64,000 nt of DNA, from positions 388,994 through 452,993 of the forward strand of contig CAVUKB010000005.1 in the NCBI GenBank assembly GCA_963741955.1, in the 5' to 3' direction. Made by a program: the position numbers and the translations under genes. Source of the stretch: an uncultured Acidobacteriota bacterium (GTDB taxonomy: Bacteria; Acidobacteriota; Thermoanaerobaculia; Gp7-AA8). How positions within the stretch are numbered: the stretch's first letter is position 1; each line of letters starts with the position of its first letter. Below the pieces are notes generated by a model that saw nothing but the letters and a program-made list of their open reading frames with translations, did no database searches and was not told the DNA's origin. Positions 31,262-64,000 of the stretch are shown piece by piece.

Positions 31262-32875
31262 ATGGCGGATCGGGCGGCGGAAACGGAAGAACGACTCAGC
31301 GAGATCCTCAATCTCTTCTCGCGAAAAATCGGATCGACAAAAGGTGCGCTCTACGCCACACCTGGCGGAAAGGATCCCTACGAGCTGGTGACCTGGTACG
31401 GCTTCGCGTCGACTCCGCGGCGCCAGGTCAGCCGGAGCGACCTGATCGTCAACCGCCTCAACACACGACGGTCCGCTTTCTGGGTCAACGGCGCTTCGAG
31501 CGATCCACGCCTGTACGAGCTGCTGTTTCACAGCGGGACCGACTCCATTCTCGTGGTTCCGATCTATCTCCAGAACCAGCTCGTCGGCTTCTTCGATCTC
31601 CGCGACAAAGCGGGAGGAGAACCGTTCGGGAATTCCGATCTCCCCCACGCGCGGGAGATCATCGAACAGATTCTTCCTCTTCTCTCACGCGGGGTTGTGA
31701 CTTCCTCATCCGGCAACGACAGGACCGCTTTGGCTGCAGCGCCCCCGGTGGATGAGGTGGCCGCACGCGAAGACGTGCTCCGCAGGACGATCCAGAAAGC
31801 GCATACGATCGCAGACCGCGATCTCGCGCCGCACCGGGCTACGACCCGCACTCTCTCCGAAGCCGAGATCATGTCCATCGTTCCGGCACTCTCGCCTCTC
31901 CTTCAGCTCTCCGGCGTCTCGATGGCCGTATTCACCGCGTTCGGACATCTCGGCAATATTCAGCAGATCATCTCCCGGGCGTCGATCACCGACGAGGCGA
32001 TGCGCGGATTCGAGCAGAAACTGAAGAACTGGATCCGGAAGCACTGGAACCTGAAGATCTCCGACACCACCCGATCGACGGTGACTCTCCCGTTCGGCGA
32101 ATCCGGGCCGAAGGTCCAGCCTGCGCACATCGGCACGGTGCTCAGCGCCGCCGTCGAGGTGAATGGAATTCCTGGTCTGGTCCTCAGCGTCGGATTCGAG
32201 ACTGCGCCCAGCCGCCAGACCAAAGCTGCTCTCGCGCTCAACCTCGAGCTCGTGCAGCAGATGCTCCACTACTCACTTTCCCATCTGCGGATGCGCACTG
32301 CGAATCAGAAGATCGCGGAGCGCCTCCTGGAGCCGGACTTCCGCCGCTATCCCCGTCTGGCGGATCACTCCATGCGGGTGGCGATGCTCGCCGAACAGTT
32401 CGCGCAGTATCTCGACCTCTCGGCCGCCGAGATGGAGAACATCCGGCTCGCGGCATATCTCCACGACGCCGGAATGCGCCTTCTCGACTACGACCGGCTC
32501 TACGAGAAGCCCTCTTTCAACGATGACGACCGCCGTCTCGTGCGAGAGCACCCGGTACTCGGCGCGGCGTTGATCGCCGAATCAGCCCTCGGAGAAGAAA
32601 TCGCGCGGGTCGTCCTCCACCACCACGAACAGCCGGACGGAAAAGGGTATCCTCACGGACTGACCGGAGAGCAGATTCCTCTCGGATCACGCATTCTCCG
32701 GATTTGCGAAACGTTCGACGCGATGACCTCTCACCACTCGTACCACGAGCCGGTTCCCGAGAGCGCCGCGCTCGCCAGCATCGTCCGGCTTGCCGGAGCG
32801 GAGTTCGAGCTCGACCTCGCCCACAAGTTCAACGAGATGCTCGTCAGGGCGTCTACCTTCGGAATGAACACCTGA
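31262..32875 (+). CDS. HD-GYP domain c-di-GMP phosphodiesterase with N-terminal GAF-like sensor domains
   Basis: The C-terminus has HD...HHHEQPDGKGYPHGL, the HD-GYP signature. Confidence 0.8.
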   Translation: MADRAAETEERLSEILNLFSRKIGSTKGALYATPGGKDPYELVTWYGFASTPRRQVSRSDLIVNRLNTRRSAFWVNGASSDPRLYELLFHSGTDSILVVPIYLQNQLVGFFDLRDKAGGEPFGNSDLPHAREIIEQILPLLSRGVVTSSSGNDRTALAAAPPVDEVAAREDVLRRTIQKAHTIADRDLAPHRATTRTLSEAEIMSIVPALSPLLQLSGVSMAVFTAFGHLGNIQQIISRASITDEAMRGFEQKLKNWIRKHWNLKISDTTRSTVTLPFGESGPKVQPAHIGTVLSAAVEVNGIPGLVLSVGFETAPSRQTKAALALNLELVQQMLHYSLSHLRMRTANQKIAERLLEPDFRRYPRLADHSMRVAMLAEQFAQYLDLSAAEMENIRLAAYLHDAGMRLLDYDRLYEKPSFNDDDRRLVREHPVLGAALIAESALGEEIARVVLHHHEQPDGKGYPHGLTGEQIPLGSRILRICETFDAMTSHHSYHEPVPESAALASIVRLAGAEFELDLAHKFNEMLVRASTFGMNT

Positions 32876-33076
32876 ATAAATCCCAGGACTGCGTCCTGGG
32901 CTATTGTCAATCGCCCCTACGGGGCTCCCGGAGAATCGTCTTTCGCCCTTGAATCCCAGGACTGCGTCCTGGGCTACTGTCAAACGCCCCGACGGGGCTC
33001 TCGGATCGTGTTCTTCCTCCAATCAGTCCCAGGACTGCGTCCTGGGCTACTATCAAACGCCCCTACGGGGCTCCCC
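32876..33076. repeat. Three tandem copies of a 73-bp unit (unit starts 32882, 32955, 33028), each with two perfect hairpins: cccagga-ctgcg-tcctggg and gcccc-tac-ggggc
   Basis: Seen directly, between the convergent HD-GYP gene and the GGDEF-EAL gene. REP-like or stacked bidirectional terminators. The spacers are too short for CRISPR. Confidence 0.85.
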
Positions 33077-33127: not shown

Positions 33128-35917
33128 CTAACCTGCCTTCAGCTGTTCTTCGAAGATCTCGCCCGGCGCGGGTCGCGCGAAAAGAAATCCCTGACCGTAC
33201 TCGCACTTCATCATCTTCAGCATGGCCAGCTGTTGTTCGGTCTCGATTCCTTCGGCGATGACCTCGAGGTTCATGGCGTGTGCAAGGGCGATCACGGTCC
33301 GGACGATCTCCGCACTCTCGGGGTTCGCGATCATGCTGCCGACGAAGGAGCGATCGATCTTCAGTCCGTCCACACGGAACCGATGCAGGTAGCTGAGCGA
33401 TGAATAGCCGGTGCCGAAGTCGTCGATGGTGATCTTCAACCCGAGGTCGCGAAGACTGACCAGCACGCGCGCTGCGCCATCGGGATCGCGCATGATCGCG
33501 CTCTCGGTGATCTCGAGGTGAAGCGAGCCGGGATCGACGTCGCATTGCCCGAGCTGCTCGCCGAGCTCCGCGGCCAGGTCAGGAGCGGTGAGCTGCATCG
33601 CGGAGAGATTGAGGCTCATGGTCAAGGGAGGATCGGGGTGGAATCGATGCTCCCATTCGTGCAGCGTGCGGCACGCTTCCCGGAAGACCCACCGGCCGAT
33701 CCTGGCGATCAGACCCGTCTCTTCGGCGAGAGGAATGAACTCGTCCGGCATCACGATGCCCCGGGTCGGATGCACCCAGCGGATCAGCGCCTCGAAACCG
33801 ACGATGTGTGAGGTGGCGAGATCGACGATCGGCTGGTAGTTCAGGCGAAACTCGTCCCGGTCGACCGCCCGTCGCAGCTCCGTCTCGAGCTCGAGCAGCT
33901 GTACCGCGCTGGCGTGCATGGTCTTTTCGAAGACCACCGACCGCGCTTTGCCGAGCGACTTGGCGCGGTACATCGCGGTGTCCGCATCGCGAATGACGTC
34001 CTCGGGCTTTTCGTATTCCGGTCCTCCGGGGGCGATCCCGATACTCGCAGTGATCGAGTACTGTCGGTCTTCGTCGTGGAATGGCATCCGCAGGACTTCC
34101 TGGACTCTTTCCGCGATCTGCAGGGCTTCGGTCTGGCTGTGAAGATCTTCGAGAAGGATCGTGAATTCGTCTCCCCCGAAGCGCGCCAGCGTATCGCCTT
34201 CCCGCACCAGCGACGCCACTCGTTGAGAGACCTGCTTGAGAAGCCGGTCGCCGGTGTCGTGTCCCAGACTGTCGTTGATCACCTTGAAGCGATCGAGATC
34301 GAGGAACAGAACCGCAAACCCGATCTTGTGTCGTCGTGCACGAGTGATCGCCACCGCCAGGCGGTCCAGAAAGAGGGGGCGGTTCGGCAGAGTGGTCAGC
34401 GGGTCGTGATACACCTCGTGCATCAGTTGATCTTCGGCGACCTTCGCTTCGGTGATGTCGGTCTGAGAGCCGGCCATCCGGACCGGGATGCCTCTTTCGT
34501 TCAGGACGGCGAGGCCGCGGCAGAGCATGAAGCGATAGCCGCCCTCTTTCTGCCGCAGCCGGTACTCGCTCTCGAAGTGGGGCGACTCCGACTGCAGGTG
34601 CGCCGAGATGCGCGCCTGCACCCGCTGAACGTCTTCGGGGTGAATCCGCTCGAACCAGACCTCGGGAGTCGAGCCGAGCTCCTCGTCGGAGTAGCCGATC
34701 ATCGCTTTCCATCGCGGCGAGAAGTACAACTCCCCCGTCACCAGGTTCCAGTCCCAGAGGCCGTCGTTGGCGCCGGCGGCAGCGAGAGCGTATCGCTGCT
34801 CGCTCTCCTTCAGCGCGGTCTCCGCTTCGATTCGCTGCATCACCTCGTGCTGCAGATCGCTCACCACGCGCTGGAGATCCGCGGTTCGGTCGGCGACCCT
34901 CTTTTCGAGATCGTCTTTCATCCCTTCGAGCTCGGCACGCGCACGACTGAGCTGCTCATTCAGAACGAACAGTTCTTCGTTGCCCGCCTGGAGCTCGTCG
35001 AGCTTGTCCAGAAATGCGCTCTCGATCTGCGCCCGGTTGAGAAGCGCGAGCTTCGCTCCGTCCAGAAGATGATCGGGAAGAAGCCGTATGATCGCAGGGA
35101 ATCCGTCGAGATTCACGTACGAGCTCGCGAGCGCGTCGTAGCTGGCTTCGAACGTGCGGTCCGCGAGCTCTTCACCGGTCAGATGCGCGAGCCGCGTGTG
35201 CAGGGCCGCCGAGAGGTCGGCCAGAAGCATGGTCCAGCCACGGGGAGTCCCCGGAATCGCGCGGTCCGGCAGCAACTCGCACGGAACACTCACCTCCGGG
35301 ATCGAGGAGACCCATTGGGAAAGTCCCTCCAGAGCGCCGCCCCTGCTGCCGAGCAGATCCGCGGCTCTCTCGAGGACATTCACGAGGAACCGACGGGCCA
35401 GATCCAGCTCCTGCGCCGGCCGATCCTGAAAGATGATCCCGAAACGAGGGATTTCCAGGAGATCGGGAAAACGTGAGGCCACGAGCTCGCGCAGCTGCGC
35501 CTGGTCGAATCGATGGGACGGATCCGCCTGCACCAGGTACTGCTCGAGAAGGAGGTAGAGCGAAGGAAGCTCTTCACGCCGCCGCGAGATGGGAAGCCGG
35601 CGGAACGCAGCCACGCGCAATCGGGCGACCTCGGCGCTTCTGGGCGAAGTCATCTGACCGACGAGAAAGTCGACCAGATCCTTCACGTCGCGGTCGTCGT
35701 CCGTCCCCGTCGTCGCCGCGACTCGCGACCGCCAGAACCGCAAACTCTGCATCAACCCCATACCACGTCCACCCCGATCGATCCGCGCGAGCGATTGCAG
35801 GTTCCGTCCGGACCACCCGGGAGTCGCTCGCGACGTACATCCTGCCCACAGGTTAACTCCGATACGCAGCGAAAAGGAGCGGTTTCTTCCCACGGTTCGG
35901 CGAAGCCCGACGGTCAC
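33128..35917 (-). CDS. Multidomain c-di-GMP turnover protein: N-terminal sensor region, coiled coil, PAS, GGDEF and EAL
   Basis: RFGGDEFTILLEDL (GGDEF) and FEALIRWVHP plus downstream EAL motifs. A PAS region (DGLWDWNLVTGELYFSPRW). The start may be the internal MGLMQSL at about 35761. Confidence 0.85.
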   Translation of the reverse strand: MTVGLRRTVGRNRSFSLRIGVNLWAGCTSRATPGWSGRNLQSLARIDRGGRGMGLMQSLRFWRSRVAATTGTDDDRDVKDLVDFLVGQMTSPRSAEVARLRVAAFRRLPISRRREELPSLYLLLEQYLVQADPSHRFDQAQLRELVASRFPDLLEIPRFGIIFQDRPAQELDLARRFLVNVLERAADLLGSRGGALEGLSQWVSSIPEVSVPCELLPDRAIPGTPRGWTMLLADLSAALHTRLAHLTGEELADRTFEASYDALASSYVNLDGFPAIIRLLPDHLLDGAKLALLNRAQIESAFLDKLDELQAGNEELFVLNEQLSRARAELEGMKDDLEKRVADRTADLQRVVSDLQHEVMQRIEAETALKESEQRYALAAAGANDGLWDWNLVTGELYFSPRWKAMIGYSDEELGSTPEVWFERIHPEDVQRVQARISAHLQSESPHFESEYRLRQKEGGYRFMLCRGLAVLNERGIPVRMAGSQTDITEAKVAEDQLMHEVYHDPLTTLPNRPLFLDRLAVAITRARRHKIGFAVLFLDLDRFKVINDSLGHDTGDRLLKQVSQRVASLVREGDTLARFGGDEFTILLEDLHSQTEALQIAERVQEVLRMPFHDEDRQYSITASIGIAPGGPEYEKPEDVIRDADTAMYRAKSLGKARSVVFEKTMHASAVQLLELETELRRAVDRDEFRLNYQPIVDLATSHIVGFEALIRWVHPTRGIVMPDEFIPLAEETGLIARIGRWVFREACRTLHEWEHRFHPDPPLTMSLNLSAMQLTAPDLAAELGEQLGQCDVDPGSLHLEITESAIMRDPDGAARVLVSLRDLGLKITIDDFGTGYSSLSYLHRFRVDGLKIDRSFVGSMIANPESAEIVRTVIALAHAMNLEVIAEGIETEQQLAMLKMMKCEYGQGFLFARPAPGEIFEEQLKAG

Positions 35918-48902: not shown

Positions 48903-50522
48903 TCACTTCTTCGCTCCGGCCTTCGTCAGCAGCTTCACGTTCTCGGTGCAGTTCATCGCTCCGGCCATCATCAGCGCCGACGCACCGCCTGCGGACTTCG
49001 CATTCGGGTTCGCGCCCGCGTCCAGAAGCGCTTTGACCAGATCCGTCATCCCACATCTCTGGGATGCCCAGATCAGAGGGGTCGATCCGTTCTCGTCCTT
49101 CGCATTCACGTCTGCGCCCGCCTTGATCAGGAAGACCCCGAGCGCGGGATCCGAGAGCGTCGACGCCGCAAGCAGAGGCGTCGTCGCGTGATCGATCGAG
49201 CTCTTCGAGTTCACGCTCAGGCCGTAGTCCAGAAACGCCTGCGCCGCTTCGAAGTTTCCCTCGTGCGCACTCGCCACGAACTGATCCTCGGTGAGCTCCC
49301 GGTATCCGAGCTCGTCGAGCTTCGCGGCCGCGGCTTCCTTCTGTTCGGCCGAGACCACTCGCTGCGCCGCAGCCTTCTTCACCGGAGCGGCCTTCCCACC
49401 GAGGAGCGCAGCGACATCCGGATGATCGGACGACCATTTCGCGGCGGTCCGTCCCACCCGGTCCTTGATCTTCGGATCGGCGCCGGCTGCGAGAAGTCTC
49501 TGGACGACGTCGGCGTAACCAGCCTTCGCAGCCTGCATGAGAGGCGTATAGCCATCGGGCTTCGAGCGGACATTCACGTCCGCCTTTGCCGCGATCAGCT
49601 TCGCGACCGCGCCGTCGTGTCCTTCTTCGGCCGCCGCGAGAAGCGCCGTCTTCCCGTCATACGTGGTGCGGGCGTTGACGTCGGAGCCCGAAGCCAGGAG
49701 CGCTTCGACCGCTGCGGTGATCGCGGACTCCTCGACGTGGAACGACTCCATCCTGCTCCGCGGGATCCCGGCCATCGCAATCAGTGCCGTCCGTCCGGTA
49801 TTCGACTCCTTTGCCTTCACGTCGGCTCCGGCTTCGAGGAGGAGTCGCACCGATTCCGTCTCTCCCCCGTCCGCCGCGGCGATCAGAGGAGTGGTACCGT
49901 CGGCGTTCGGCGTATTCAGGTTCGCTTTGGCCGCGATCAGTACCGGTGTGGTGCTGCGTCCATACGAAGCGGAAAGAAACAGCGGCGTCTCGCCCTTCCC
50001 ATTCGGCGCGTCGACCCTGGCGCCGGCGTCGAGGAGGACCTTCAGCCGTGCCGGCTGATCCGCGATCACCGCTTCGTGCACGATCGTATTGCCGTCTTCG
50101 TACACCGTTTCGAGGCTGGCTCCGGCGGCGACGAGCAGCGGCGTGGCGTTGGCTCCGATCTGCCCGCTGTGGATGTCCGCGAACAGCGGGGTCTTGCCGT
50201 CCTGGTCCGCCAGGTTGACGCTGGCCTTCGCCTTCAGAAGCATCGCGACGAGTTTCGCATTGTCATCGTCCGCGGCCTCGAGCAGCGGCGTCCGTCCGGA
50301 CGAGTCGCGCGAGTCGGGGTCCATCCCGGCTTTCAGAAAGAGCTCGACCGCTTTTGCGTCACCACTGTCCGCGACGCTGACCATCTCCGCGGGAGTGAAG
50401 TCGTGTCCCATCTTCTGCAGTTTCTTGCGGGCGGATGCAGCCTCGTCGGCCAGCACCGCCGGGGCTCCGACGATGAATAGAGCGAGAACGAGCGCGCAAA
50501 CGCGGGACGTACGTGACGTCAT
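48903..50522 (-). CDS. Secreted ankyrin-repeat protein (about 13 ANK repeats)
   Basis: Signal peptide MTSRTSRVCALVLALFIVGAPAVLA. Repeated G-TPL--A---G----V--LL--GA motifs. Start at an internal ATG. Confidence 0.75.
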   Translation of the reverse strand: MTSRTSRVCALVLALFIVGAPAVLADEAASARKKLQKMGHDFTPAEMVSVADSGDAKAVELFLKAGMDPDSRDSSGRTPLLEAADDDNAKLVAMLLKAKASVNLADQDGKTPLFADIHSGQIGANATPLLVAAGASLETVYEDGNTIVHEAVIADQPARLKVLLDAGARVDAPNGKGETPLFLSASYGRSTTPVLIAAKANLNTPNADGTTPLIAAADGGETESVRLLLEAGADVKAKESNTGRTALIAMAGIPRSRMESFHVEESAITAAVEALLASGSDVNARTTYDGKTALLAAAEEGHDGAVAKLIAAKADVNVRSKPDGYTPLMQAAKAGYADVVQRLLAAGADPKIKDRVGRTAAKWSSDHPDVAALLGGKAAPVKKAAAQRVVSAEQKEAAAAKLDELGYRELTEDQFVASAHEGNFEAAQAFLDYGLSVNSKSSIDHATTPLLAASTLSDPALGVFLIKAGADVNAKDENGSTPLIWASQRCGMTDLVKALLDAGANPNAKSAGGASALMMAGAMNCTENVKLLTKAGAKK

Positions 50523-50694
50523 CCGGCACCTCCAGTTCGATTCCAGGGAATGCGAGAGCGTAAACCTGCGCCCGGCGTAAATCAATCGAAATTCACGAGC
50601 TGACCCCCACCACTCCCGAATTTCCGATGTTTCCGCTTCTCCAGCGCCGTACCACCCGGAGCGGGTGAGCCGGCGATCGGCCGCATTCCGCATC

Positions 50695-53492: not shown

Positions 53493-54905
53493 CTACGAAG
53501 TGGCGTACTGGACAGCCATTTCGGGGGTGACAGCGGATTTCGAGCGCTTCAGGTGTCGTGCGACGGGGGTCTGGAAGTCGGTGAAATTGGGGGGTTCGAA
53601 GTTGCGGATGTGGCGAATGCAGGCGGATCGCATCGCGCGAAGGTACTGGCCGGTGGGTATTCGCCACTGATCGGGGATATCGTTGTCTCTCCACTTGGGC
53701 ATCAGTTCGGGGGGCGCAGTGGAGCCGAGGCCGAAGCAATCGGCGGCAGCGAGGAGCATCATCGAGTAGACGGCTACGGCGAAAGCGGGCAGCGAGTCGA
53801 CCGATCGCCGGTTGCGCACCTGCGCCTGGCCGACACCGAAGATCTGCTTTTCGTCGCGGTGATTGACCTCGATATCCCAGCGGCGGAAGTAGGCTTGGAC
53901 GAGCTCGACGAGCGAGAGTTTCAGGTCGGTACAGATCAGGAACGCCGGTTTGCGATACAGCAGGCGTGATTTCTTGCGGAGCCGATAGCCCAGTGGCCGG
54001 ATCACGACGAGCCGCAGAGGCAGTTCATAACCCGAAGTTTTCCAAAGCACGGGACCGATGGTCTTGATCGAACAGGCGTGTTCACGACCCGAGGCCCAGA
54101 CTTGGACCTGTTGCCAGTCGATGGATTGGTCCACGCGGAGTTGATCGGGTGTTGGGGCCTGATCGCCATACCAGCGCTTGCGTCCGCGAAGCGGTTGAGA
54201 GTTTGGAGGAAAGAACAGCTTCGCGTCGCCTCGGATGCGACCGATCAGGATCGTTCGTTCCGGCAAGTTCCGCAGAACCGTACGGTTGGTGTAACCGCCG
54301 TCAACCACCGGCATCAGCACGCGCTCGCTCGCTCCGAGCTGGTCAAAGTCCTTGCGAGTTTGGATCAGCAGACGCGTTGCACCGATGGAAAGATTCTGCT
54401 CTTTCTGCTGGCGACGATACTCGGCACGTTCCTGCTCGGTTGCTCCGGCCCCCGGGCGAACCGCCGGAGGCTGGTGATTGAACCGGATCGGGAAGCTGCG
54501 CGCCGGACCGGCAGACTGGCCAGTTAAAGGAACACTGATCGCAGCCTGAATGAACCGTTGGGCGCGGATCAAGTTCGTGTGGAAAGGCGGCGACATCGGA
54601 TCGCGCTGATAACTCACGCCTGGGATCTTCATGCCCGTCTTGCGCAACTTCGTGTCATCCAGCGGCAGCACCAGCGGTGCGTCGAGCGGCAAGTACGCGA
54701 GCAGGTGTCGTTCGATGACTCTGAACATCTCGCTCACATCGAACCGACCCTCCGAGAAAACGCGATAGTCTGCCGACCAGTCCTGCTGCGGATCGCGGCC
54801 TGCTTCAATCATTCCGCTTACCGTGTGTCGCCCGGTGCAGTTGAGCAGGCCGATGGCCAACCCACGAACCCGCTGAAGCACCCGAGCATCACAGGATCCA
54901 TTCAA
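53493..54905 (-). CDS. DDE transposase, IS4-like (YREK signature)
   Basis: 470 aa with VDGGY and YFRRWDIEVNHRDEKQ (Y-x2-R-x3-E-x6-K). Confidence 0.8.
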   Translation of the reverse strand: MNGSCDARVLQRVRGLAIGLLNCTGRHTVSGMIEAGRDPQQDWSADYRVFSEGRFDVSEMFRVIERHLLAYLPLDAPLVLPLDDTKLRKTGMKIPGVSYQRDPMSPPFHTNLIRAQRFIQAAISVPLTGQSAGPARSFPIRFNHQPPAVRPGAGATEQERAEYRRQQKEQNLSIGATRLLIQTRKDFDQLGASERVLMPVVDGGYTNRTVLRNLPERTILIGRIRGDAKLFFPPNSQPLRGRKRWYGDQAPTPDQLRVDQSIDWQQVQVWASGREHACSIKTIGPVLWKTSGYELPLRLVVIRPLGYRLRKKSRLLYRKPAFLICTDLKLSLVELVQAYFRRWDIEVNHRDEKQIFGVGQAQVRNRRSVDSLPAFAVAVYSMMLLAAADCFGLGSTAPPELMPKWRDNDIPDQWRIPTGQYLRAMRSACIRHIRNFEPPNFTDFQTPVARHLKRSKSAVTPEMAVQYATS

Positions 54906-54945
54906 TTCGTCGAAGATCGCGTTGAATGAGCGAAGAAGATTTCGA

Positions 54946-55155
54946 TCAGCGTTTTTTTTTGACCCGCTTCGCTTCGACGGTTCCGGTCGGATCCTTTGCC
55001 CGCTTGAGGATCAGCGTTCGCTTGTCCTCGATGACCCATTCGACGATCTCACCGCGAATGAATTCACAAGCTTGGGCCACGGCCGCGGGAAGGTTCACGT
55101 ACCACTGCCTGCTCTTTGCACGAGCGATCAGCTGCACTTTGGTTGGAAATCCCAT
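54946..55155 (-). CDS. AbrB/MazE-fold small DNA-binding protein (69 aa) carried inside the IS
   Basis: [54 protein letters not shown], a looped-hinge-helix-like pattern. The upstream in-frame extension of ORF 54946..55296 runs into the repeat and is rejected. Confidence 0.5.
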
Positions 55156-55262
55156 GGTGACCTCCTTCTGGTCTAGTGATATAACTAGATACCACGGGAC
55201 GAAAAAAAAGTCCAGAATTCCTGGACTTCCGCCCAACGACTCCGAGTTCCGCCAAACTCCAG

Positions 55263-55545
55263 TCCCCGGCATCCTGCCGGGGAGCGATGGCAGCAATCAA
55301 ACGCAGATCCCGCCTCTCGCGCCGCGGTCCGTTCGTCTCTCGACTCTCGGGACGATCCTTGTATCTCGCACCAGGCAGGGCGGCGCGGGACGCCGCCCTG
55401 CATCGGGCGAGGACGCCCAACCCACTGGGCACCGGACGGGATGTCCAACCCACTCGAGCATCGGACGGGACCTTCAGTCATCGAACAGGACGTCCAACCC
55501 GCTTGCCCGGGCTCGGGTTGAGCCCGGACCCACTCTCGCGAGATA
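55263..55545. repeat. Continuation (about 1.3 units) of the 190-bp repeat on the right flank of the IS. It ends in the hairpin ccgggctcgggttgagcccgg.
   Basis: The sequence matches the units at 52741-53458. Confidence 0.85.
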
Positions 55546-55567
55546 CTCCGCACCCGGAGGTCCTTCA

Positions 55568-56872
55568 ATGCGTTCTCATCTCGCCCTCTTCACCATTCTC
55601 CTCGCCGCGTCGCTGCTCGTTCCGCAGGCTGCATCCGCAGCCGATGCCGCGCCCACGAACGTCCTCCTCCGCCCGGAGCGCGTCTTCGACGCCGTCAGCA
55701 CCACGCCGCACGACGGCTGGGTCGTCCTGGTCACCGGGGACCGCATCGCTGCAGTCGGACCGGCCGCCGAGGTGAAGGCACCCGCAGGGGCGCAGGTGAT
55801 CGACCTCCCGGGCATGACGCTTCTCCCGGGACTGATCGACGCGCACTCCCACATCTTCCTCCACCCCTACAACGAGACGCTCTGGAACGATCAAGTGCTG
55901 AAGGAAGCGCTCGCGTACCGGACCATCCTCGCGGTGAACCACTCGCGGGACACGCTGATGGCGGGATTCACTACGCTCCGCGATCTCGGAACCGAGGGGG
56001 CGGGTTACGCGGATCTCTCGGTGAAGCAGGCCATTGAAGAGGGACGCATCCCCGGACCGCGGCTTTTCGTTGCGACGCGCGCCATCGTGGCGACGGGAAG
56101 CTATGGCCCCGGACCACGTGGCTTCGCTCCGGAGTTCGTTCCGCCGAAAGGGGCGGAAGAAGTGAGCGGCACGGCGGAGATTCTCAAAGCCGTGCGCGAG
56201 CAGGTCGGACACGGCGCCGACTGGGTGAAGGTGTACGCCGACTACCGCCGCGGCCCCGGCGGGACGGCTGCGCCGACCTTCTCGCTCGACGAGTTGAAGA
56301 CGCTCGTCGATGAAGCACACAGCGCGGGACGCGAAGTCTCCGCACACGCGACCACAGCCGAAGGGATGCGACGCGCGGTGATGGCCGGCGTCGACACGAT
56401 CGAGCACGGCTACGGCGGGACGGACGACGTATTCAAACTGATGGCGGAGAAGGGCGTCGCGTTCTTCCCCACTCTCACTGCTGAAGAAGCGTACGGCGAA
56501 TACTTCGAGGGGTACAAGCGCGGCACGAAACCGCTCACGCCCGGGATGCAGCAGGCGCTGCACGCGTTTCAGCTGGCGATGAAGGACGGCGTGACCATCG
56601 GATGCGGCAGCGACGTCGGCGTTTTCACGCACGGCGAGAACTACCGCGAAGTCGAGTGGATGGTGAAAGGCGGCATGACTCCGGTCCAGGCGCTCATGGC
56701 CGCCACCGCGGTCGACGCAAAAGTCCTCGGGCAGCAGGACCGCTTCGGCCGCGTGGAGAAAGGCCTTCTCGCCGATCTCATCGCCGTCCCCGGCGACCCG
56801 ACGAAGGACATCACCGCGATCGAGACCGTCCCGTTCGTGATGAAAGGCGGAGTGATCTACAAGCGGCCCTGA
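55568..56872 (+). CDS. Secreted amidohydrolase family protein (imidazolonepropionase / Xaa-Pro dipeptidase-like metal hydrolase)
   Basis: Signal peptide [24 protein letters not shown]. Metal-ligand motifs HSH...H...H...D (LIDAHSHIF). The 648-aa ORF's N-terminal extension is repeat-derived and rejected. Confidence 0.75.
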
Positions 56873-56934
56873 TCCGGCTCTCCAACGACCTCGGCAGTCG
56901 CCCCGGCGAAGATGCGCTATCATCATGGCTTCCC

Positions 56935-58467
56935 ATGATCGATACGCCGCTCTCCCGTCGCGACGCGCTCCGGGTACTGGGCCTCACCATGGCCTCGCTC
57001 CCGTTCATGCGAGGTCTCCGAGCAGAGGACGTCCCGACGCCGAACGTCATCTTCATCATGACCGACGATCAGCGGAAGGACGCGATGAGCGCGTACGGCA
57101 ATACCATCCTGAAAACGCCGAACATGGACCGGATCGCGAACGGCGGGGTCAGGTTCGAGGAAGCGTTCGTCACCAATTCTCTCTGCGCGCCGAGCCGCGC
57201 TTCGTTCCTCACCGGCCTCTACTCGCACTCCCACGGGGTCATCACCAACGGCGATGGACCACAGTTCTACAACGGTCCCGGTCTTCCGAAGGACCAGCCG
57301 ACCTGGCCACAGCTTCTCCATGAAGCCGGCTACCACACCGGACTGGTCGGGAAGTGGCACCTCAAGTCGCAACCGACCGGATTCGACGACTGGGTCATCT
57401 TCCCGTGGCAGGGGGAGTACCACGATCCGGAGATGCTGGCGAAGGGAGTCCCGCTCCGTATGCGCGGTCATGCTGACGACGTGGTCGGCGATCAGGCGCT
57501 CGAGTTCCTCCGCAAGCGACCGCGGGATCGTCCGTTCTGCCTCCTCTACCAGTTCAAATCCCCGCATCGCACCTGGGGTCCCGCGAAGCGTTTCGCCCAC
57601 ACGTTCGACGACATCGAGATCCCCGTTCCCCGCACCTTCGAAGACCGCCTGGTTGGAAGACCCGAAGCGGTCCGTGCCGCGGAGATGGAACTGGAGAACA
57701 TGCCCGATTACCGCGATCGCGTTCCTCTCTCCCTTCCTCCCGAAGAGCGGAAACGGAGAAACCTGCAGATCATGGTGAAGGACTACTATCGCGTGCTCCT
57801 GAGCGTCGACGAGAATGTCGGCCGCGTTCTGGACTTTCTCGACGAGCAGAAGCTCACCACCGACACGATCGTCATCTACACCTCAGACAACGGATTCTTC
57901 CTCGGCGAGCACGGCCTGTTCGACAAGCGGCTGATGTACGAGCCGTCGATCCGCATCCCGTTCGCGGTTCGCTATCCGCGGCGCGTTCCGGAAGGAGTGG
58001 TCGACCGGTCGCACATGATCCTCAACGTCGACGTGATGCCGACCGTCCTCCAGTTCGCGGGTGTTCCCGTCCCGCCGCGGCTGCAGGGCCGGAGCATGGT
58101 GCCGATCCTCGAGGGAGCCGACGTGCCGTGGCGCGACGCCTTCCTCTACGAGTACTACGAATATCCGGCCGGACACTGCGTGCGGAAGAACCGCGGCGTG
58201 CGAACCGGACGATGGAAGCTGATTCACTTCTTCGAACAGCCGGAAGAGTGGGAGCTTTACGATCTGAAGAATGATCCCGACGAGACGAAGAACCTGGCGT
58301 CCGATCCGAAATACGCGAGTGTCAGGACGTCGCTGATCGCGAGAATGGCCGAGCTGCGGAAAGAGCTCGGCGACAGCGATCCGCCCGGGCCTCCGCCGCG
58401 CGCGCAGGGCTGCCACGAGGGACATGCGTTGGGGTGGAGCGACTCCCCCACCGCGGTGCCGAAGTAG
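56935..58467 (+). CDS. Tat-secreted sulfatase (formylglycine-dependent arylsulfatase family)
   Basis: Twin-arginine signal (SRRDALRVLGL). Sulfatase signature SLCAPSRASFLTG (C-x-P-x-R). Confidence 0.8.
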   Translation: MIDTPLSRRDALRVLGLTMASLPFMRGLRAEDVPTPNVIFIMTDDQRKDAMSAYGNTILKTPNMDRIANGGVRFEEAFVTNSLCAPSRASFLTGLYSHSHGVITNGDGPQFYNGPGLPKDQPTWPQLLHEAGYHTGLVGKWHLKSQPTGFDDWVIFPWQGEYHDPEMLAKGVPLRMRGHADDVVGDQALEFLRKRPRDRPFCLLYQFKSPHRTWGPAKRFAHTFDDIEIPVPRTFEDRLVGRPEAVRAAEMELENMPDYRDRVPLSLPPEERKRRNLQIMVKDYYRVLLSVDENVGRVLDFLDEQKLTTDTIVIYTSDNGFFLGEHGLFDKRLMYEPSIRIPFAVRYPRRVPEGVVDRSHMILNVDVMPTVLQFAGVPVPPRLQGRSMVPILEGADVPWRDAFLYEYYEYPAGHCVRKNRGVRTGRWKLIHFFEQPEEWELYDLKNDPDETKNLASDPKYASVRTSLIARMAELRKELGDSDPPGPPPRAQGCHEGHALGWSDSPTAVPK

Positions 58468-58636
58468 TCGAGAAACTCCGCGAGCGACCATCTCGCGCTC
58501 CGCGAACCCGCTCCCGCCCCGTCCGAAGCGAGCTCTCGGGCTTTTCCATTTTTCCTGCCGAATTCACCGGATTCGAATGGTAATCGTGCGCGAGATCACG
58601 TCCGTCGCTCGATCCTGTCTTACAATAGTTCTCTAA

Positions 58637-59623
58637 ATGGTCCCATCCTTGTTCGGACTTCTGGATTCATTTCCAGCGGTAGAGGTGGTGCGTTTTCTGG
58701 TCGCCCGCGCGATGTCGGGGACGCTCTCCATTGCCTCCGGCGGCGGATTCGAGATCGTGTTCCGTCGCGGCCGCATCGTCGCTGCGTCCTGCCGCGGAGA
58801 GAACGCGGCCTCGGCTGCCGCGGAGATCGCGATTCGCGCGATGCTTCAGTGGACCGGAACGTTCTCGTTCGCAGATTCGATCGGCGATCCCGCCGGCTCC
58901 GTCGATCTCGATCCCGCCCAGTTGATCGCCACGGTGGAGGAACGCATCGATCAGAGCGTCCACTACCCGGCCGGCTCCGTCTTCCTTCTCGCCCGCGACA
59001 TCGAAACGGACGAACGATTCACGGCCGGAGAAGTCCGGGTTCTGCGGGAGCTCGACGGGACGCGTCCGATCGAGGAGGTGATCCGGGAGAGCGGTCTCGC
59101 GAGCGACGAGGCGGCCGCAATCGTTGCATCGATGGTCCGCAGAGGATGGCTGATCTCCCGGCAGGGCTCGAAGATGAAGCTTCCCGCCGCACGACCTTCG
59201 GATTCCCCCGCTCCTGATCGGGCGGGCGTTCCACGTCCCCCCACCGAGGAGATGCCGGCACCTGCGGGATCGGCCGGGCCCGCCGAACCGAGCTCACGGG
59301 CGCCATTTCTCGCCTGTTTCACGCTCGACAATACCGCGAGCACGTCGTTCCCTCTCTTCGACGAGAGCTGCACGATCGGACGGAGCTCCAGGAATACGAT
59401 CCAGCTCGATGACCCGAGCGTCTCCTCTTCGCATGCCCGCATCACGGCCACCGCCGATGGGCATCTCCTCGAGGACCTCGGGTCGAGCAACGGGACGTTC
59501 GTCAACGGCCGGAAGATCAGGACGGCGTCGCTGCGCGACAAGGACCGCATCCGGATGGGCGCGGTCTACATGGTCTACATGATTCCCGAAGTCCATCGAC
59601 CCGAGAGCGAGCCTCGCCCATGA
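58637..59623 (+). CDS. DUF4388 domain plus C-terminal FHA domain protein
   Basis: N-terminus LLDSFPAVEVVRFLVARAMSGTLSIASGGGFEIVFRRGRIVAAS (DUF4388-like). C-terminus CTIGRSSRNTIQLDDPSVSSSHARI...GSSNGTFVNGRKI (FHA). Confidence 0.65.
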   Translation: MVPSLFGLLDSFPAVEVVRFLVARAMSGTLSIASGGGFEIVFRRGRIVAASCRGENAASAAAEIAIRAMLQWTGTFSFADSIGDPAGSVDLDPAQLIATVEERIDQSVHYPAGSVFLLARDIETDERFTAGEVRVLRELDGTRPIEEVIRESGLASDEAAAIVASMVRRGWLISRQGSKMKLPAARPSDSPAPDRAGVPRPPTEEMPAPAGSAGPAEPSSRAPFLACFTLDNTASTSFPLFDESCTIGRSSRNTIQLDDPSVSSSHARITATADGHLLEDLGSSNGTFVNGRKIRTASLRDKDRIRMGAVYMVYMIPEVHRPESEPRP

Positions 59624-62022
59624 CGGAGCTCGATCTCATCATCGTCGGCTCCGGACCCGCAGGATTGAGCGCTGCGTCTCACGCCGCGAGCAACGCTCTT
59701 CGCTACGTGGTCCTCGAGCGAGCTCCACACATCGCCGACACCATCCAGTGCTATCAGGCGCGCAAGTACGTGATGGCCGAGCCGATGGTCATCCCCGGGC
59801 GCGGCGATCTCCCGTTCGAGGCGGGCTCGCGCGAGTCGATCCTCGACGCATGGAGTGTCCACTGTCGCGATCGCACGCTCCACATCGAGTTCGGAAAGGA
59901 AGTTCAGTCGATCGAGCGCGGCTCGTCCGGATTCACGGTCCGCACGAAGGACGGCGGAAGCTGGGCGGCCCCGAACGTGATCCTCGGCGTCGGCACGCAG
60001 GGATCTCTGCGGAAGCCGAACGTCCCGGGCGAAGATCTCCCCCACGTTTTCTATCGACTGGCCGACCCGTCCGATTACAGCGATCAGGATCTCGTCGTGG
60101 TCGGTGCAGGCGATTCCGCGCTCGAGATCGCACTCGCGCTCGCCGACGAGAACCGCGTCAGCCTGGTCGTCCGCTCGTCCGAGATCGTCCGGGCGAAGGA
60201 GAGCCTCACCCGCGAGGCACTGAGTCGCGAAGCGAGCGGACGGATGACGATCTACTTCAGCGCGACTCTGCACAACATCGAGCCGGGATTCACCGATCTC
60301 GACGTTCGCGGAGAGATCGTCCGTGTTCCCGCACAGGCTCTCTTTCTCAAGCTCGGAGCGGTCGCACCACGGAAGTTTTTCGAGTCGTGTGGCATCGAGT
60401 ACAGCGGGAAAGATCGCGACGCCATCCCTCTCCTCTCGGAGCACTACGAGACGAGCGTTCCGGGCCTCTATCTGATCGGCGCGGCAAGCGGACGCGATCT
60501 GATCAAACTCGGGATGAATCAGGGATGGGAAGTCGTCGAGCACATCCTCGGGCACGAGGTCGAACCCGCCGACGAAGCGGTGCTGCGGGAGAGAGTTCCC
60601 TTTCTGGAAGGAACCGTCCACCAGAGGATCGGACAGCTCAGAGAAAAGATTCCGCTATTCGCGGCCGCCGAGGTCGAGCAGATCCGCGAGATGCTGCTCG
60701 CGACGGAGTTGCGGGAGTTCACGAACGGGCAGACCGTCATCCGGCAGAACGATTACACGAACGAGTTCCTGGTGATCGCGAGCGGCCGGGTCGAGGTCCT
60801 GGTCCGGAGCGAGGAAGGCGTGGAGAGCCGGGTCGCCGAGCTGACCGCGGGGAACTTCTTCGGCGAGATGAGTCTCATCTCGGGACGTCGCCGGAGTGCG
60901 ACGGTGAATGTGGTCGGCCCGGCGAAGATCTTCGCCATTCCGCGAAAAGCCATGCTGAAGCTGATCCGCACTTCGCCCGCAGTGCGCGATCTGGTCGATC
61001 GCGCATTCCTGATCCGGGCGATTCAGGGCTACCTCTTCCCGAATGTCTCCACCGCACGGCTGGGAGAACTGGTCGGACGTGCCGAGCTCCTCTCGCTCCC
61101 GAAGGGTCACGCGGTGTTCTACGAGGGCGCCGAAGGAGACGCGTTCTACCTCATCCGGAATGGAATGGTGAAGATCGCCCGCAAGTCGGGTGATCGGGAG
61201 CTCGTTCTCTCCTATCTCGTCGCAGGCAACTTCTTCGGAGAAACGGCACTCCTTTCGAACCAGCCGCGGACTGCGACCGTCACCACGATCTTTCCCTCCG
61301 ACCTGATTCGCCTCAGCCGCGACGATTTCCAGTCGTTCCTCGCGGCCAATCCTCAGTTCCGCGCCGACCCGATGAAGAAGCTCGAGGAGCGACGGATCGG
61401 CGCTCTCGTCGCCGATGCGACACCGGGAGCGGGGAACGTTCTGAGCGATCTGATTCGCGAAGAAGTGGTGATGGGGACGGACACCCTGATCATCGACGAG
61501 CATCTCTGCATCCGCTGCAGCAACTGCGTCCGCGCGTGCGAGGGCGTTCACGATGACGGTCAATCGCGGCTCTCGCTCACCGGCATTCGTCTGTACAACG
61601 TCCTCGCACCGAACTCCTGCTGGCAGTGCGAGAACCCTCTCTGCATGCTCGACTGCCCGCCGGATGCGATCGCGCGCGACCCGCGAGGAGAGGTCTACAT
61701 CCGGAGCAACTGCATCGGATGCGGAAACTGCGAGTCGAATTGTCCCTACGGCAACATCTTCATGATTCACCCCAAACCGAAGTGGGATCCATTCGGCTGG
61801 GTCAAGTCACTCTTCGCCCGCGCTGCGGGAAGATCGGCCGACGGCAACGGCGGCGAGCACGGCATCGAGCGGACTCTCGCCGTGAAGTGCGATCTCTGTC
61901 GCGACCTCGGCAGCGGACCGGCATGCGTGCGGAGCTGTCCCACCGGTGCCGCGCTGCGTCTCACGCCGCAGGAGTATCGCAGCACGCTGGAGGAGATCGT
62001 GATCACCAGAGGAGATCGCTGA
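59620..62022 (+). CDS. Multidomain redox/sensor protein: thioredoxin-reductase-like FAD/NAD(P) oxidoreductase, then two cNMP-binding (CAP effector) domains, then a 4x[4Fe-4S] ferredoxin module
   Basis: IIVGSGPAGLSAA and VVVGAGDSALE (dinucleotide folds). Two GNFFGE(M/T)(S/A)L cNMP-pocket motifs. Four Cys clusters: CIRCSNCVRAC, CWQCENPLCMLDCP, CIGCGNCESNCP, CDLCRD...CVRSCP. ATG overlaps the upstream stop. Confidence 0.75.
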   Translation: MTELDLIIVGSGPAGLSAASHAASNALRYVVLERAPHIADTIQCYQARKYVMAEPMVIPGRGDLPFEAGSRESILDAWSVHCRDRTLHIEFGKEVQSIERGSSGFTVRTKDGGSWAAPNVILGVGTQGSLRKPNVPGEDLPHVFYRLADPSDYSDQDLVVVGAGDSALEIALALADENRVSLVVRSSEIVRAKESLTREALSREASGRMTIYFSATLHNIEPGFTDLDVRGEIVRVPAQALFLKLGAVAPRKFFESCGIEYSGKDRDAIPLLSEHYETSVPGLYLIGAASGRDLIKLGMNQGWEVVEHILGHEVEPADEAVLRERVPFLEGTVHQRIGQLREKIPLFAAAEVEQIREMLLATELREFTNGQTVIRQNDYTNEFLVIASGRVEVLVRSEEGVESRVAELTAGNFFGEMSLISGRRRSATVNVVGPAKIFAIPRKAMLKLIRTSPAVRDLVDRAFLIRAIQGYLFPNVSTARLGELVGRAELLSLPKGHAVFYEGAEGDAFYLIRNGMVKIARKSGDRELVLSYLVAGNFFGETALLSNQPRTATVTTIFPSDLIRLSRDDFQSFLAANPQFRADPMKKLEERRIGALVADATPGAGNVLSDLIREEVVMGTDTLIIDEHLCIRCSNCVRACEGVHDDGQSRLSLTGIRLYNVLAPNSCWQCENPLCMLDCPPDAIARDPRGEVYIRSNCIGCGNCESNCPYGNIFMIHPKPKWDPFGWVKSLFARAAGRSADGNGGEHGIERTLAVKCDLCRDLGSGPACVRSCPTGAALRLTPQEYRSTLEEIVITRGDR

Positions 62023-62023
62023 G

Positions 62024-62863
62024 GTGCCGGTCCGGAGACATGCAGGCCGCTGGCAGCTGATCTCGGCGCTTCTTCTCGCCGCACTGCTCGGCTCATACGT
62101 CTGGTACGAGCAGCGCGAGCCGTTCACCCATGGCGGATCGACGATGGGTCTGATCTACGGAATCGTGGCGCTCGCGCTGATGGGCCTCCTTCTCTGGTTC
62201 GGCATCCGGAAGCGCTCCTACCGAAGCCGCTTCGGCACGCTCGAGGAGTGGCTGCAGTCGCACATCTATCTCGGCCTCTTCACGTTTGCGGTGGTGATCG
62301 CGCACACCGGATTCCAGTTCCGCGATCGGATGGCGATCGCGCTCCTGATCGTGGTCACTCTGGTGATCGCCAGCGGAATCCTCGGCGCGATTCTCTACAA
62401 GACGGTGCCGCGTCTGCTCACCGAGGTCGACTCGAATCTTCCTGCGGACGCGATGTCGGAAGAGATGAACCAGCTGACGCGATCGATGTCGCGGGCCGCA
62501 TCGGGCAAGTCGGCCCCGTTCCAGCGCATTTACAAACGGCTGGTGCAGGAAGCAATCCCTCCTCCTCTCGCGGGATGGCGTCTCCTGCTCCGTTCTTCGA
62601 ACCGACGGAATCCCACCACTCGTCCGGACGACTGGTCGTCATTCCTGGGGATGGTTCCGGAAGACGAACAGGCGGAGCTGCGACAGCTTCTGGTGCTCTC
62701 ACGGCAGCAGAAGGAACTGCAACTGCGCCTGGTTGCACAGCAGAAGTACCGTAACCTGCTCGATTTCTGGCTCTACATGCACCTCCCTCTTTCCATCGCC
62801 ATGATCCTCCTGATCATCGCGCATCTGTGGGGCGTGTTCTATTACGGCAAAATCCAGTTCTGA
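62024..62863 (+). CDS. Hypothetical polytopic membrane protein (about 5 TM)
   Basis: GTG start 1 nt after the upstream stop. Hydrophobic segments. No recognisable family. Confidence 0.5.
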   Translation: MPVRRHAGRWQLISALLLAALLGSYVWYEQREPFTHGGSTMGLIYGIVALALMGLLLWFGIRKRSYRSRFGTLEEWLQSHIYLGLFTFAVVIAHTGFQFRDRMAIALLIVVTLVIASGILGAILYKTVPRLLTEVDSNLPADAMSEEMNQLTRSMSRAASGKSAPFQRIYKRLVQEAIPPPLAGWRLLLRSSNRRNPTTRPDDWSSFLGMVPEDEQAELRQLLVLSRQQKELQLRLVAQQKYRNLLDFWLYMHLPLSIAMILLIIAHLWGVFYYGKIQF

Positions 62864-62872
62864 GGAATCGGC

Positions 62873-64000
62873 GTGTCCTTTCTGCTTCAGAAGATCGACC
62901 GGCCCAGAGTCACTCTGGTCGAGGTGAAGTCGCCCCGATTGACGATCGGGCGAGGCACGGGTGCGGACCTTCGATCCGAAAACGCCGCGGTGGCGCTCGA
63001 GCACGCGGTCGTCGAACTGAGGAAGGATGCCGGATACGAGATCTTCGACCGGGGGAGCATCACCGGGACGTACGTGAACGGGCGTCCCATCGAGAGCCGG
63101 CTCCTCGCGGCAGGCGATCGGATCGAGATCGGCGACCTGGTGATGGACGTCCAGGTTGCGGCGGCGGATCGTCCCCTCTTCCTCCGCGTCGAGAAAACGC
63201 GGGAAGAGAACGAAGCTCCGCTTCAGACCGGCGCGGCGGACGAGCGTCCCGTCTTCCTCACCGGAGCGCGGGTCGGAGCGCCTCGGATTGACTTCTCCCG
63301 CGCCTACGCACTGCGCCAGGGCTTTCTGTCGAAAGGTGGAATGGTCTTCTCCCTGATGGCCCTCACGGCGATTCTCGTTGCGGCGGCGATCATCGGTGCG
63401 AAGGGCCTCGCCTACCAGCCCGGGCCGATCTCCGTCGCGCACGCGACGGCGACCCGACCCGATGGCGAGCGCGTCATCGGCGAACACGAGTGCAACGCGT
63501 GTCACGTTCCCTTCGGAGGAGCGAGCAACCACAAGTGCGGCGAGTGCCACGAGCAGTCGTTCCACCAGGCGAGAGAAGCGAAGGTCGGCCCGTGCATCGA
63601 CTGTCACGCAGAGCATCGCGACGTCCCGAATCTCGCGATGGTCCAGGCACAGCAGTGCGTTCGATGTCATCGGAATCTCGAGGGGAGCTCCATCACCGCG
63701 AAACGAACCATCACCGCGTTCGAGACCGACCATCCCGAATTCACGATCCGGCTGGCGAGCGGAAAGAACGAGGCGGTCAACACCGCGACGGCTCGTACCG
63801 CGGATGCGATTCCACTGAAGTTCAACCACCAGTGCCACCTTCAGGGAAAGTGCAATCTCACTCCGCCCACTGCGAGCGACCCGAGACGGGAGAAGGTCGA
63901 GCTTCACTGTGTCTCCTGCCACACTTTCGATCCGCAGACCGGAGCGGCCCAGCCGGTCCGGTACGAGACCGCATGCTCGAAATGTCATCCGCTCACGTTC
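62873..64000 (+). CDS. FHA domain, single TM helix, then a multihaem c-type cytochrome (at least 6 CxxCH); 3' end lies beyond the window
   Basis: GTG start. Open through the window end, so it is absent from the ORF track. FHA: LTIGRGTGADLRSENAAVALEHAVVEL...GSITGTYVNGRPI. TM: MVFSLMALTAILVAAAIIGA. Haem motifs: CNACH, CGECH, CIDCH, CVRCH, CVSCH, CSKCH. Confidence 0.7.
   Translation, partial: MSFLLQKIDRPRVTLVEVKSPRLTIGRGTGADLRSENAAVALEHAVVELRKDAGYEIFDRGSITGTYVNGRPIESRLLAAGDRIEIGDLVMDVQVAAADRPLFLRVEKTREENEAPLQTGAADERPVFLTGARVGAPRIDFSRAYALRQGFLSKGGMVFSLMALTAILVAAAIIGAKGLAYQPGPISVAHATATRPDGERVIGEHECNACHVPFGGASNHKCGECHEQSFHQAREAKVGPCIDCHAEHRDVPNLAMVQAQQCVRCHRNLEGSSITAKRTITAFETDHPEFTIRLASGKNEAVNTATARTADAIPLKFNHQCHLQGKCNLTPPTASDPRREKVELHCVSCHTFDPQTGAAQPVRYETACSKCHPLTF

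Follow-up and report, generated by a model that had tools for sequence, protein, structure and literature searches.

A conserved decahaem cytochrome c with forkhead-associated domains in a putative transmembrane electron-transfer operon of Acidobacteriota

The subject of this analysis is a 64,000-nucleotide stretch of DNA from an uncultured Acidobacteriota bacterium (contig CAVUKB010000005.1, positions 388,994 to 452,993), referred to here as the window, whose right-hand end carries the beginning of a gene for a membrane-anchored cytochrome c fused to forkhead-associated (FHA) domains. The complete protein, recovered from a second contig, is 811 aa long and consists of FHA1, a linker, a first transmembrane (TM) helix TM1, ten CxxCH haem-binding motifs, a second helix TM2, another linker and FHA2. 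It is encoded behind genes for a cytoplasmic oxidoreductase and a 5-TM protein, in a gene order that recurs in many genomes. What is observed directly is this architecture and how well it is conserved, together with the order of the genes and the residue patterns of the proteins. We propose, at a confidence evenly divided between acceptance and doubt, that the operon encodes a module moving electrons across the membrane, in which the decahaem protein would be the periplasmic subunit and the FHA domains would be cytoplasmic handles for control or docking.

The gene and its product

The cytochrome gene starts at GTG 62873, with GAGGA 8 nt 5' of the start and the stop codon of the preceding gene at 62861-62863, and the frame then stays open for 375 codons to the end of the window. 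Homologues share the start residue with this open reading frame (ORF; MSFL...). A sequence-only reading of the same DNA had described one polypeptide with an FHA domain, a TM helix and six CxxCH motifs, continuing beyond the last letter of the window. Pfam, helix and motif analyses confirmed this, and so did contig L083 (GCA_049580305.1), which matches the last 7.5 kb of the window at 99.99% identity and contains the gene in full. The part beyond the window adds four further CxxCH motifs (the last at C529), TM2 at about aa 577-607, a Pro/Ser/Ala-rich linker of ~120 residues and the C-terminal FHA2 at aa 738-800. In a Pfam search of the 811-aa protein both FHA domains were matched (E 6.6e-31), together with Cytochrome_C7. 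The features within the window are the following.

62873..64000 (+): 5' part of the FHA1-TM1-decahaem-TM2-FHA2 gene, 1128 nt, aa 1-375 of 811; the remainder is L083:8627-9934
62942..63133 (+): FHA1, aa 24-87, cytoplasmic; Gly-Arg, His and structural Asn kept, phosphate-contact Ser replaced by Ala41 and loop Asn by Thr64
63284..63319 (+): conserved juxtamembrane motif RIDFSRAYALRQ, aa 138-149; D140, A144 and L147 invariant in the close set
63341..63400 (+): TM1, signal-anchor helix MVFSLMALTAILVAAAIIGA, aa 157-176, oriented N-in
63422..64000 (+): first part of the periplasmic haem domain, with six of the ten CxxCH motifs and six of the ten conserved distal His (H190, H231, H248, H287, H319, H322)

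The six motifs in the window are CNACH 207, CGECH 222, CIDCH 241, CVRCH 262, CVSCH 346 and CSKCH 368. When the residues of the haem-bearing part were shuffled 20,000 times, CxxCH occurred on average 0.07 times and at most twice, compared with the six observed. In an alignment of 180 relatives each of the ten CxxCH motifs was 99-100% conserved, and ten further histidines were conserved at 92-100% (H190, H231, H248, H287, H319, H322, H385, H475, H478 and H536). One distal His ligand is thus available per haem, which is the pattern of an electron-transfer wire and not of a catalytic haem; all ten haems appear to be bis-histidine (bis-His) ligated, and the domain appears to act as a wire rather than a catalytic site. 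Repeated CxxCH motifs, matching distal histidines and a preceding TM helix, the features by which a bis-His multihaem c-type cytochrome is recognised at the sequence level, are all present. A Foldseek search of the decahaem model against the PDB gave only FHA matches in its top 50 and nothing structurally related to the haem domain. A match to HmcA (E 1.4e-10) spans positions 186-337 of the family profile, where the N-terminal part of this domain lies.

These data also dispose of the most trivial explanation, namely that a frameshift or an assembly error has joined separate FHA and cytochrome genes, or that the CxxCH density is a product of chance composition. The same continuous ORF is found in the near-identical independent contig and in 80 genomes, and the order of domains recurs in about 100 database proteins, 80 loci and the best 150 representatives of the searches described below. 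The motifs are conserved and lie far above the shuffle expectation. We therefore regard an artefact as having a negligible probability.

Because c-type haem attachment is extracytoplasmic and a stretch RRDRR follows TM2, we infer that the 811-aa protein forms an inner-membrane hairpin, with both ends and both FHA domains in the cytoplasm and the haem domain looping into the periplasm. This agrees with the earlier placement of the haem part outside the cytoplasm: in this conserved fusion it must lie outside the cytoplasmic membrane. In the AlphaFold2 (AF2) model of a homologue (P0006, mean predicted local distance difference test score, pLDDT, 86.7), FHA1 is modelled at pLDDT 93-97 and the linker of ~35 residues between FHA1 and the membrane at pLDDT below 50, and the motif RIDFSRAYALRQ comes after this low-confidence linker. 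Relatives that have no FHA domain keep an equivalent 'DY..RR' motif.

On the opposite strand, the ORF at 62699-63988 gave no match in a Pfam search; long antisense ORFs are frequent in GC-rich DNA. A promoter and terminator scan of 58000-64000 gave nothing informative on the plus strand.

Distribution of the family

The word-index homologue search gave at least ~100 database proteins sharing the FHA-TM-multihaem order, and almost every one of them has exactly ten CxxCH motifs. This search returned neither the identical 811-aa protein nor any double-FHA form, probably because its capped list of candidates had been taken up by generic FHA proteins, and these were recovered through the neighbouring gene and an exhaustive search; conclusions about length drawn from the word-index list alone would therefore mislead. 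Scanning one genome per species gave 80 loci (best 58% identity), almost all of them in Thermoanaerobaculia and other Acidobacteriota, the exceptions being one Nitrospirae and one Syntrophobacteraceae. Among 1.84 billion representatives, the exhaustive profile search found 2,448 proteins with E<=1e-30, of which the best 150 were all below 1e-114 and matched the FHA-TM-decahaem profile nearly end to end, most of them from its first positions, and these consequently carry FHA1. In the longer members (700-800 aa, N-terminally shifted) the linker between FHA and TM is extended and no domain is added, except for a C-terminal DUF4384 in one of them. The family dominates in Thermoanaerobaculia of soil and groundwater and is present in iron oxidisers too. 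One further candidate, P0119, was rejected after its context (L090) was found to be unrelated; it probably belongs to a different cytochrome family.

An equivalent of FHA2 is present in 64 loci, in 57 of which it is in frame with the cytochrome, giving proteins of 715-816 aa. In the other seven loci FHA2 is encoded by a separate TM-FHA gene directly downstream, so that the two arrangements form a fusion/fission pair. The cytochrome and TM-FHA2 ORFs of some split loci (L001:11581-11585; L013:5510-5514) are one codon position apart in stop-to-stop ORF coordinates; this gap could result from recent fission, sequencing error or read-through. The deeper branches (Nitrospirae, Syntrophobacteraceae and the proteobacterial-type loci L085 and L086) have FHA1 only, and another clade has no FHA domain at all and retains the TM anchor, the ten haems and the juxtamembrane motif.

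The two FHA domains and their pockets

There is little question about the fold of FHA1. It is matched by the Pfam FHA family (PF00498) at 46.6 bits, where the cut-off is 20.7 (E 4.8e-12), and the best Foldseek matches of FHA1 in the P0006 model are the FHA domains of GarA and OdhI (E 4e-8). We read the FHA pockets by alignment to GarA, whose FHA domain is the best solved match. The Gly-Arg pair of FHA1 is kept in 162 of 163 relatives and the His in all 163. The loop between beta4 and beta5 reads V-A-L-E-H instead of the canonical S-K/R-R-H: the Ser position of the SxxH motif is Ala in 136/163 relatives (83%) and Ser in only 13/163, and the next two residues (H-2 and H-1) are Leu in 146/163 and Glu or Asp in 148/163 instead of basic. 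The Asn of the beta6-beta7 loop is Thr in 140/163 and Asn in none. As a control, FHA2 was canonical in 62 of 62 sequences, and the FHA domain of the PatA_N-FHA protein of the same operon in 50 of 54. As judged by these residues, the phosphothreonine pocket of FHA1 is degenerate and lacks what a canonical phosphothreonine (pThr) reader has. Its non-canonical loops are the best conserved part of the domain, which suggests that this surface has been selected for some ligand, probably not a phosphate.

The sequence-only reading had proposed that phospho-dependent docking through the N-terminal FHA domain brings cytoplasmic partners, such as the PatA_N-FHA protein or a phosphorylated kinase, onto the periplasmic wire. 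Such pThr binding by FHA1 has in its favour the retained fold with its invariant Gly-Arg, His and structural Asn, the presence of two canonical FHA domains within the same operon, and a Hanks kinase gene directly upstream of the operon in a handful of related loci (L001, L014, L016, L030 and L082). The residues that would hold the phosphate have been lost, however, with the contact Ser and its basic neighbours replaced and the loop Asn absent from all relatives, and a motif scan together with Pfam on 26 of the larger ORFs, which was not exhaustive, found no Hanks kinase in the window. Of the proposed partners, the PatA_N-FHA protein stands as a conserved operon partner in Thermoanaerobaculia. 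We consider docking by FHA1 in this manner doubtful and unlikely to be its function. If phospho-docking does occur, the canonical FHA2 beyond the window end would be the better candidate for it.

FHA folds devoid of pThr-binding residues have a precedent in YscD/PrgH of type III secretion systems, and FHA1 scored 32.7 bits against the corresponding Pfam family Yop-YscD_cpl (PF16697), marginally below the cut-off of 33.2. No secretion-system family was matched among the conserved neighbours, which were called as redox and FHA proteins. The FHA-TM scaffolds in general (YscD/PrgH, Rv1747, FhaB/FipA and GltG) resemble our protein in that a TM helix connects a cytoplasmic FHA domain with a machine in the membrane or outside the cytoplasm. 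Rv1747, an ABC transporter of M. tuberculosis, has two FHA domains paired through a phosphorylatable linker, and its FHA domains were among the PDB matches. None of these scaffolds carries a cytochrome, however, and the operon described here has no secretion or transport genes.

Genes of the operon

The four window genes in 58637-64000 abut or overlap one another. Those preceding the cytochrome gene are the following.

58637..59623 (+): PatA_N (DUF4388)-FHA protein with a canonical FHA domain; its stop overlaps the oxidoreductase start
59620..62022 (+): 800-aa cytoplasmic oxidoreductase with a thioredoxin-reductase-like FAD/NAD(P)H domain, two cyclic nucleotide (cNMP)-binding domains and four Cys-rich ferredoxin motifs (4Fe-4S)
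62024..62863 (+): 279-aa 5-TM protein with invariant H80/H94 (TM3) and H253/H267 (TM5), both Hx13H; a putative di-haem b protein

In every locus with enough flanking sequence the oxidoreductase, the 5-TM protein and the cytochrome follow each other in this order on one strand, and the same core is found at 27-28% identity in the proteobacterial-type loci L085, L086 and L089. An identical copy of the 279-aa protein (P0121) occurs in a public Thermoanaerobaculia metagenome-assembled genome, on contig L083. In three FHA-less loci (L087, L088 and L092) NuoE/NuoF-like NADH-binding proteins and a Fer-cNMP-Fer4 protein replace the Pyr_redox flavoprotein, and two other FHA-less loci have a cNMP-Fer4 protein of 850-866 aa. 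The cytoplasmic input module is therefore interchangeable and always NAD(P)H/Fe-S-like; what stays constant is an Fe-S protein bearing cNMP domains, along with the four-His membrane protein and the decahaem cytochrome. FHA1 was found only alongside the Pyr_redox-type partner; as this involves few independent events, we take it as a lead only.

Downstream of the cytochrome are encoded, in order, an HbpS-like protein, a protein of 671-684 aa, a ~1,200-aa LVIVD-repeat protein with ten CxxCH motifs and a c554-like tetrahaem cytochrome. These proteins have signal peptides, and the two cytochromes among them bear 10 and 4 CxxCH. The 671-684-aa protein (L083:11762-13816; L001:13807-15822) has a signal peptide, belongs to no Pfam family and ends in ...TVKF or ...LTF, and by this ending it is a candidate outer-membrane barrel. 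Placed as it is between the HbpS-like protein and the LVIVD cytochrome, it could form with this set a porin-cytochrome-like exit. Our literature searches for LVIVD with multiheme proteins and for Thermoanaerobaculia with multiheme cytochromes found nothing relevant.

Upstream of the operon, the window contains a DDE_5 transposase gene (53493-54905, minus strand) followed by amidohydrolase and sulfatase genes. This block, 53493-58467, occupies the place where several related genomes carry the Hanks kinase upstream of PatA_N-FHA, and the arrangement may be a local rearrangement.

The 279-aa protein as a candidate cytochrome b

Five histidines stand out across 75 relatives of the 279-aa protein, and four of them, H80, H94, H253 and H267, are invariant also in seven sequences at 26-28% identity that include FHA-less systems. 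In the AF2 model (pLDDT 83) the two Hx13H pairs lie on TM3 and TM5 of a membrane domain of five helices, with one His of each pair near each membrane face. A Pfam search of 58 members gave Ferric_reduct in 43, Ni_hydr_CYTB in 27 and DUF4405 in 14, all below threshold; the three are members of a single clan, that of two-haem cytochromes. For the 279-aa protein itself the scores were likewise under the cut-offs (25.9 versus 30.1 and 20.4 versus 28). A PDB sequence search with this protein gave no match, and NCBIfam has no curated family for either it or the cytochrome. Taken together, these residue and family patterns are suggestive, not proof, that the 279-aa protein is probably a di-haem b cytochrome.

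In NADPH oxidases and ferric reductases of the NOX/FRE type, electrons from NAD(P)H travel by way of a flavin and two stacked b haems to an outside acceptor; TM3 and TM5 hold these haems by pairs of His spaced about 13 residues apart. The logic proposed for the present operon is the same. It would differ from NOX/FRE in that its functions are distributed over separate proteins, its path includes an additional Fe-S relay and a tethered ten-haem cytochrome serves as the outside acceptor. The Ferric_reduct score also remains below its cut-off. T133 of the 5-TM protein was also considered as a target for an FHA domain, and this was dropped as the residue is invariant in FHA-less systems too.

A possible route for electrons

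From these patterns we infer haem b binding, a path and direction for the electrons and the nature of the FHA ligands, as follows. Electrons would pass from NAD(P)H to FAD and then to four [4Fe-4S] clusters, all within the 800-aa flavoprotein with its two cNMP domains, next to the two b haems of the 279-aa 5-TM protein and then to the ten c haems of the cytochrome. The c haems would deliver them to the secreted LVIVD and c554-like cytochromes and the candidate outer-membrane barrel. The direction would be outward, as this is downhill from NAD(P)H. Cyclic nucleotides and FHA contacts would control this route from the cytoplasm. FHA1 would most likely tether or position a partner without the need for a phosphate, the best candidate being the Pyr_redox-type flavoprotein, and FHA2 on its long linker would read phosphothreonine marks, together with the PatA_N-FHA protein.

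Several points weigh against this interpretation. The link between FHA1 and the flavoprotein rests on few independent evolutionary events. A multihaem protein with a single TM helix could draw electrons from quinol like NrfH or CymA, in which case the neighbours would not be needed. A kinase to write the marks for FHA2 was not found in the window and is absent from most loci. Finally, the HbpS-like neighbour is a hint of sensing more than of respiration.

This last point bears on the idea that the protein is a redox sensor, with the periplasmic haems reporting the outside redox state and the FHA pair relaying it to cytoplasmic signalling, without bulk electron flow. HbpS in Streptomyces is an accessory of a haem-dependent redox-stress sensor, and the HbpS-like gene lies directly downstream of the cytochrome here. 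The signalling load of the operon is also heavy, with three FHA domains, PatA_N, two cNMP domains and sometimes a kinase. Against a sensor, ten bis-His haems far exceed the known haem sensors, and the decahaem protein always occurs with the NAD(P)H/Fe-S module, the four-His membrane protein and two more multihaem cytochromes. The FHA-less relatives retain all of those redox partners. A role in sensing alone thus seems improbable to us.

Comparison with known systems

The earlier remark that a fusion of this kind is unusual proved correct, as the literature hardly mentions it. In a 2026 preprint, the study of Ferrigenium straubiae describes 'NHC', a nonahaem cytochrome c with a cytosolic FHA domain and adjoining 5-TM and 4Fe-4S proteins, calls the FHA-multihaem combination previously unreported and considers the TM protein to have no redox motif (bioRxiv 10.64898/2026.01.22.701106). 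In a 2023 pangenome table of Gallionellaceae, a 'Forkhead-associated protein' with 10 CXXCH is entered for 27 genomes (PMC10734462). This table and the preprint are its only records in the literature searched, and the architecture is otherwise barely described. Compared by description, NHC resembles our protein in its cytosolic N-terminal FHA domain, its TM helix, its periplasmic multihaem part and its 5-TM and 4Fe-4S neighbours, and the proteobacterial-type loci L085, L086 and L089 show the same trio. Unlike NHC, the window protein has a second TM helix, a second and canonical FHA domain at its C-terminus, and ten haem motifs versus nine, and its 5-TM partner has two invariant Hx13H pairs whereas none was reported as a redox motif in Ferrigenium.

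The authors of the preprint propose a quinol dehydrogenase of the NapC/NrfH/CymA type, which would exchange electrons with the quinone pool and for which the membrane and Fe-S neighbours would be accessory. The layout is indeed shared, since NapC/NirT/NrfH/CymA proteins are likewise anchored by a TM helix at the N-terminus and supply electrons to periplasmic partners from a multihaem c domain in the periplasm, and there are weak profile matches, with E 1e-4 for NrfH and E 3.6e-6 for a NapC-type tetrahaem entry. Such weak matches are, however, typical of any CxxCH-rich sequence, and no stretch passed the NrfH profile by itself; Pfam and NCBIfam searches of the cytochrome listed no NapC/NirT match. 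Those proteins have four haems and no cytoplasmic domain, whereas the protein described here has a cytoplasmic N-terminus of 156 aa, FHA domains at both ends, dedicated Fe-S and four-His partners, and ten haems, each with a conserved His as sixth ligand. A quinol dehydrogenase would moreover leave the invariant four-His and Fe-S/NAD(P)H partners unexplained, and we give this proposal a small chance of being right.

The Hmc and Tmc complexes of sulfate reducers consist of a periplasmic multihaem c protein, a haem-b membrane subunit and a cytoplasmic Fe-S protein. The likeness lies in the linking of a periplasmic multihaem c protein to cytoplasmic Fe-S through a membrane subunit with haem b, here putative. 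The subunit families and numbers are different, the cytochrome itself is membrane-anchored, and neither an NAD(P)H flavoprotein with cNMP domains nor FHA domains have a counterpart there.

The building blocks of the operon are all of known kinds; what appears to be new is the double-FHA hairpin, the degenerate pocket of FHA1 and the four-His signature of the membrane partner. A more specific and more tentative form of our proposal, possible but less likely than the general one, is that the operon is a quinone-independent envelope conduit in which the logic of an NADPH oxidase is wired to a tethered decahaem and outer cytochromes, gated by cyclic nucleotides and by phosphate-independent and pThr-reading FHA domains, and occurring widely in Acidobacteriota, Nitrospirota and Proteobacteria, iron oxidisers among them. 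To our knowledge, the known inner-membrane entry points (CymA, ImcH, CbcL and others) all operate via the quinone pool, and we know of none that is switched by protein phosphorylation. Electron routes into and out of bacteria underlie metal cycling, corrosion and bioelectrochemistry. If the proposal is true, the operon would provide a direct wire from NAD(P)H to the periplasm with built-in control by second messengers and phospho-signals. It would also give a role to the conserved 5-TM protein that the preprint called non-redox, and the cytochrome would be a naturally occurring example of a membrane protein whose two FHA domains differ in their pockets.

Other features of the window

Two further observations were made at a distance from the operon. 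Three tandem Acido-Lenti-1 RNA motifs (Rfam RF01687) are present at 32882-33072 on the plus strand, with scores of 41-47 bits, all above the gathering score. They directly follow a GAF-HD gene (31262-32875); on their other side is a PAS-GGDEF-EAL gene (33128-35917, minus strand), which they face. Proteins dominated by ankyrin repeats are uncommon in bacteria, and the window encodes one such protein of 596 aa at 48903-50693 on the minus strand, which consists mostly of these repeats (Ank_2, E 2e-57).

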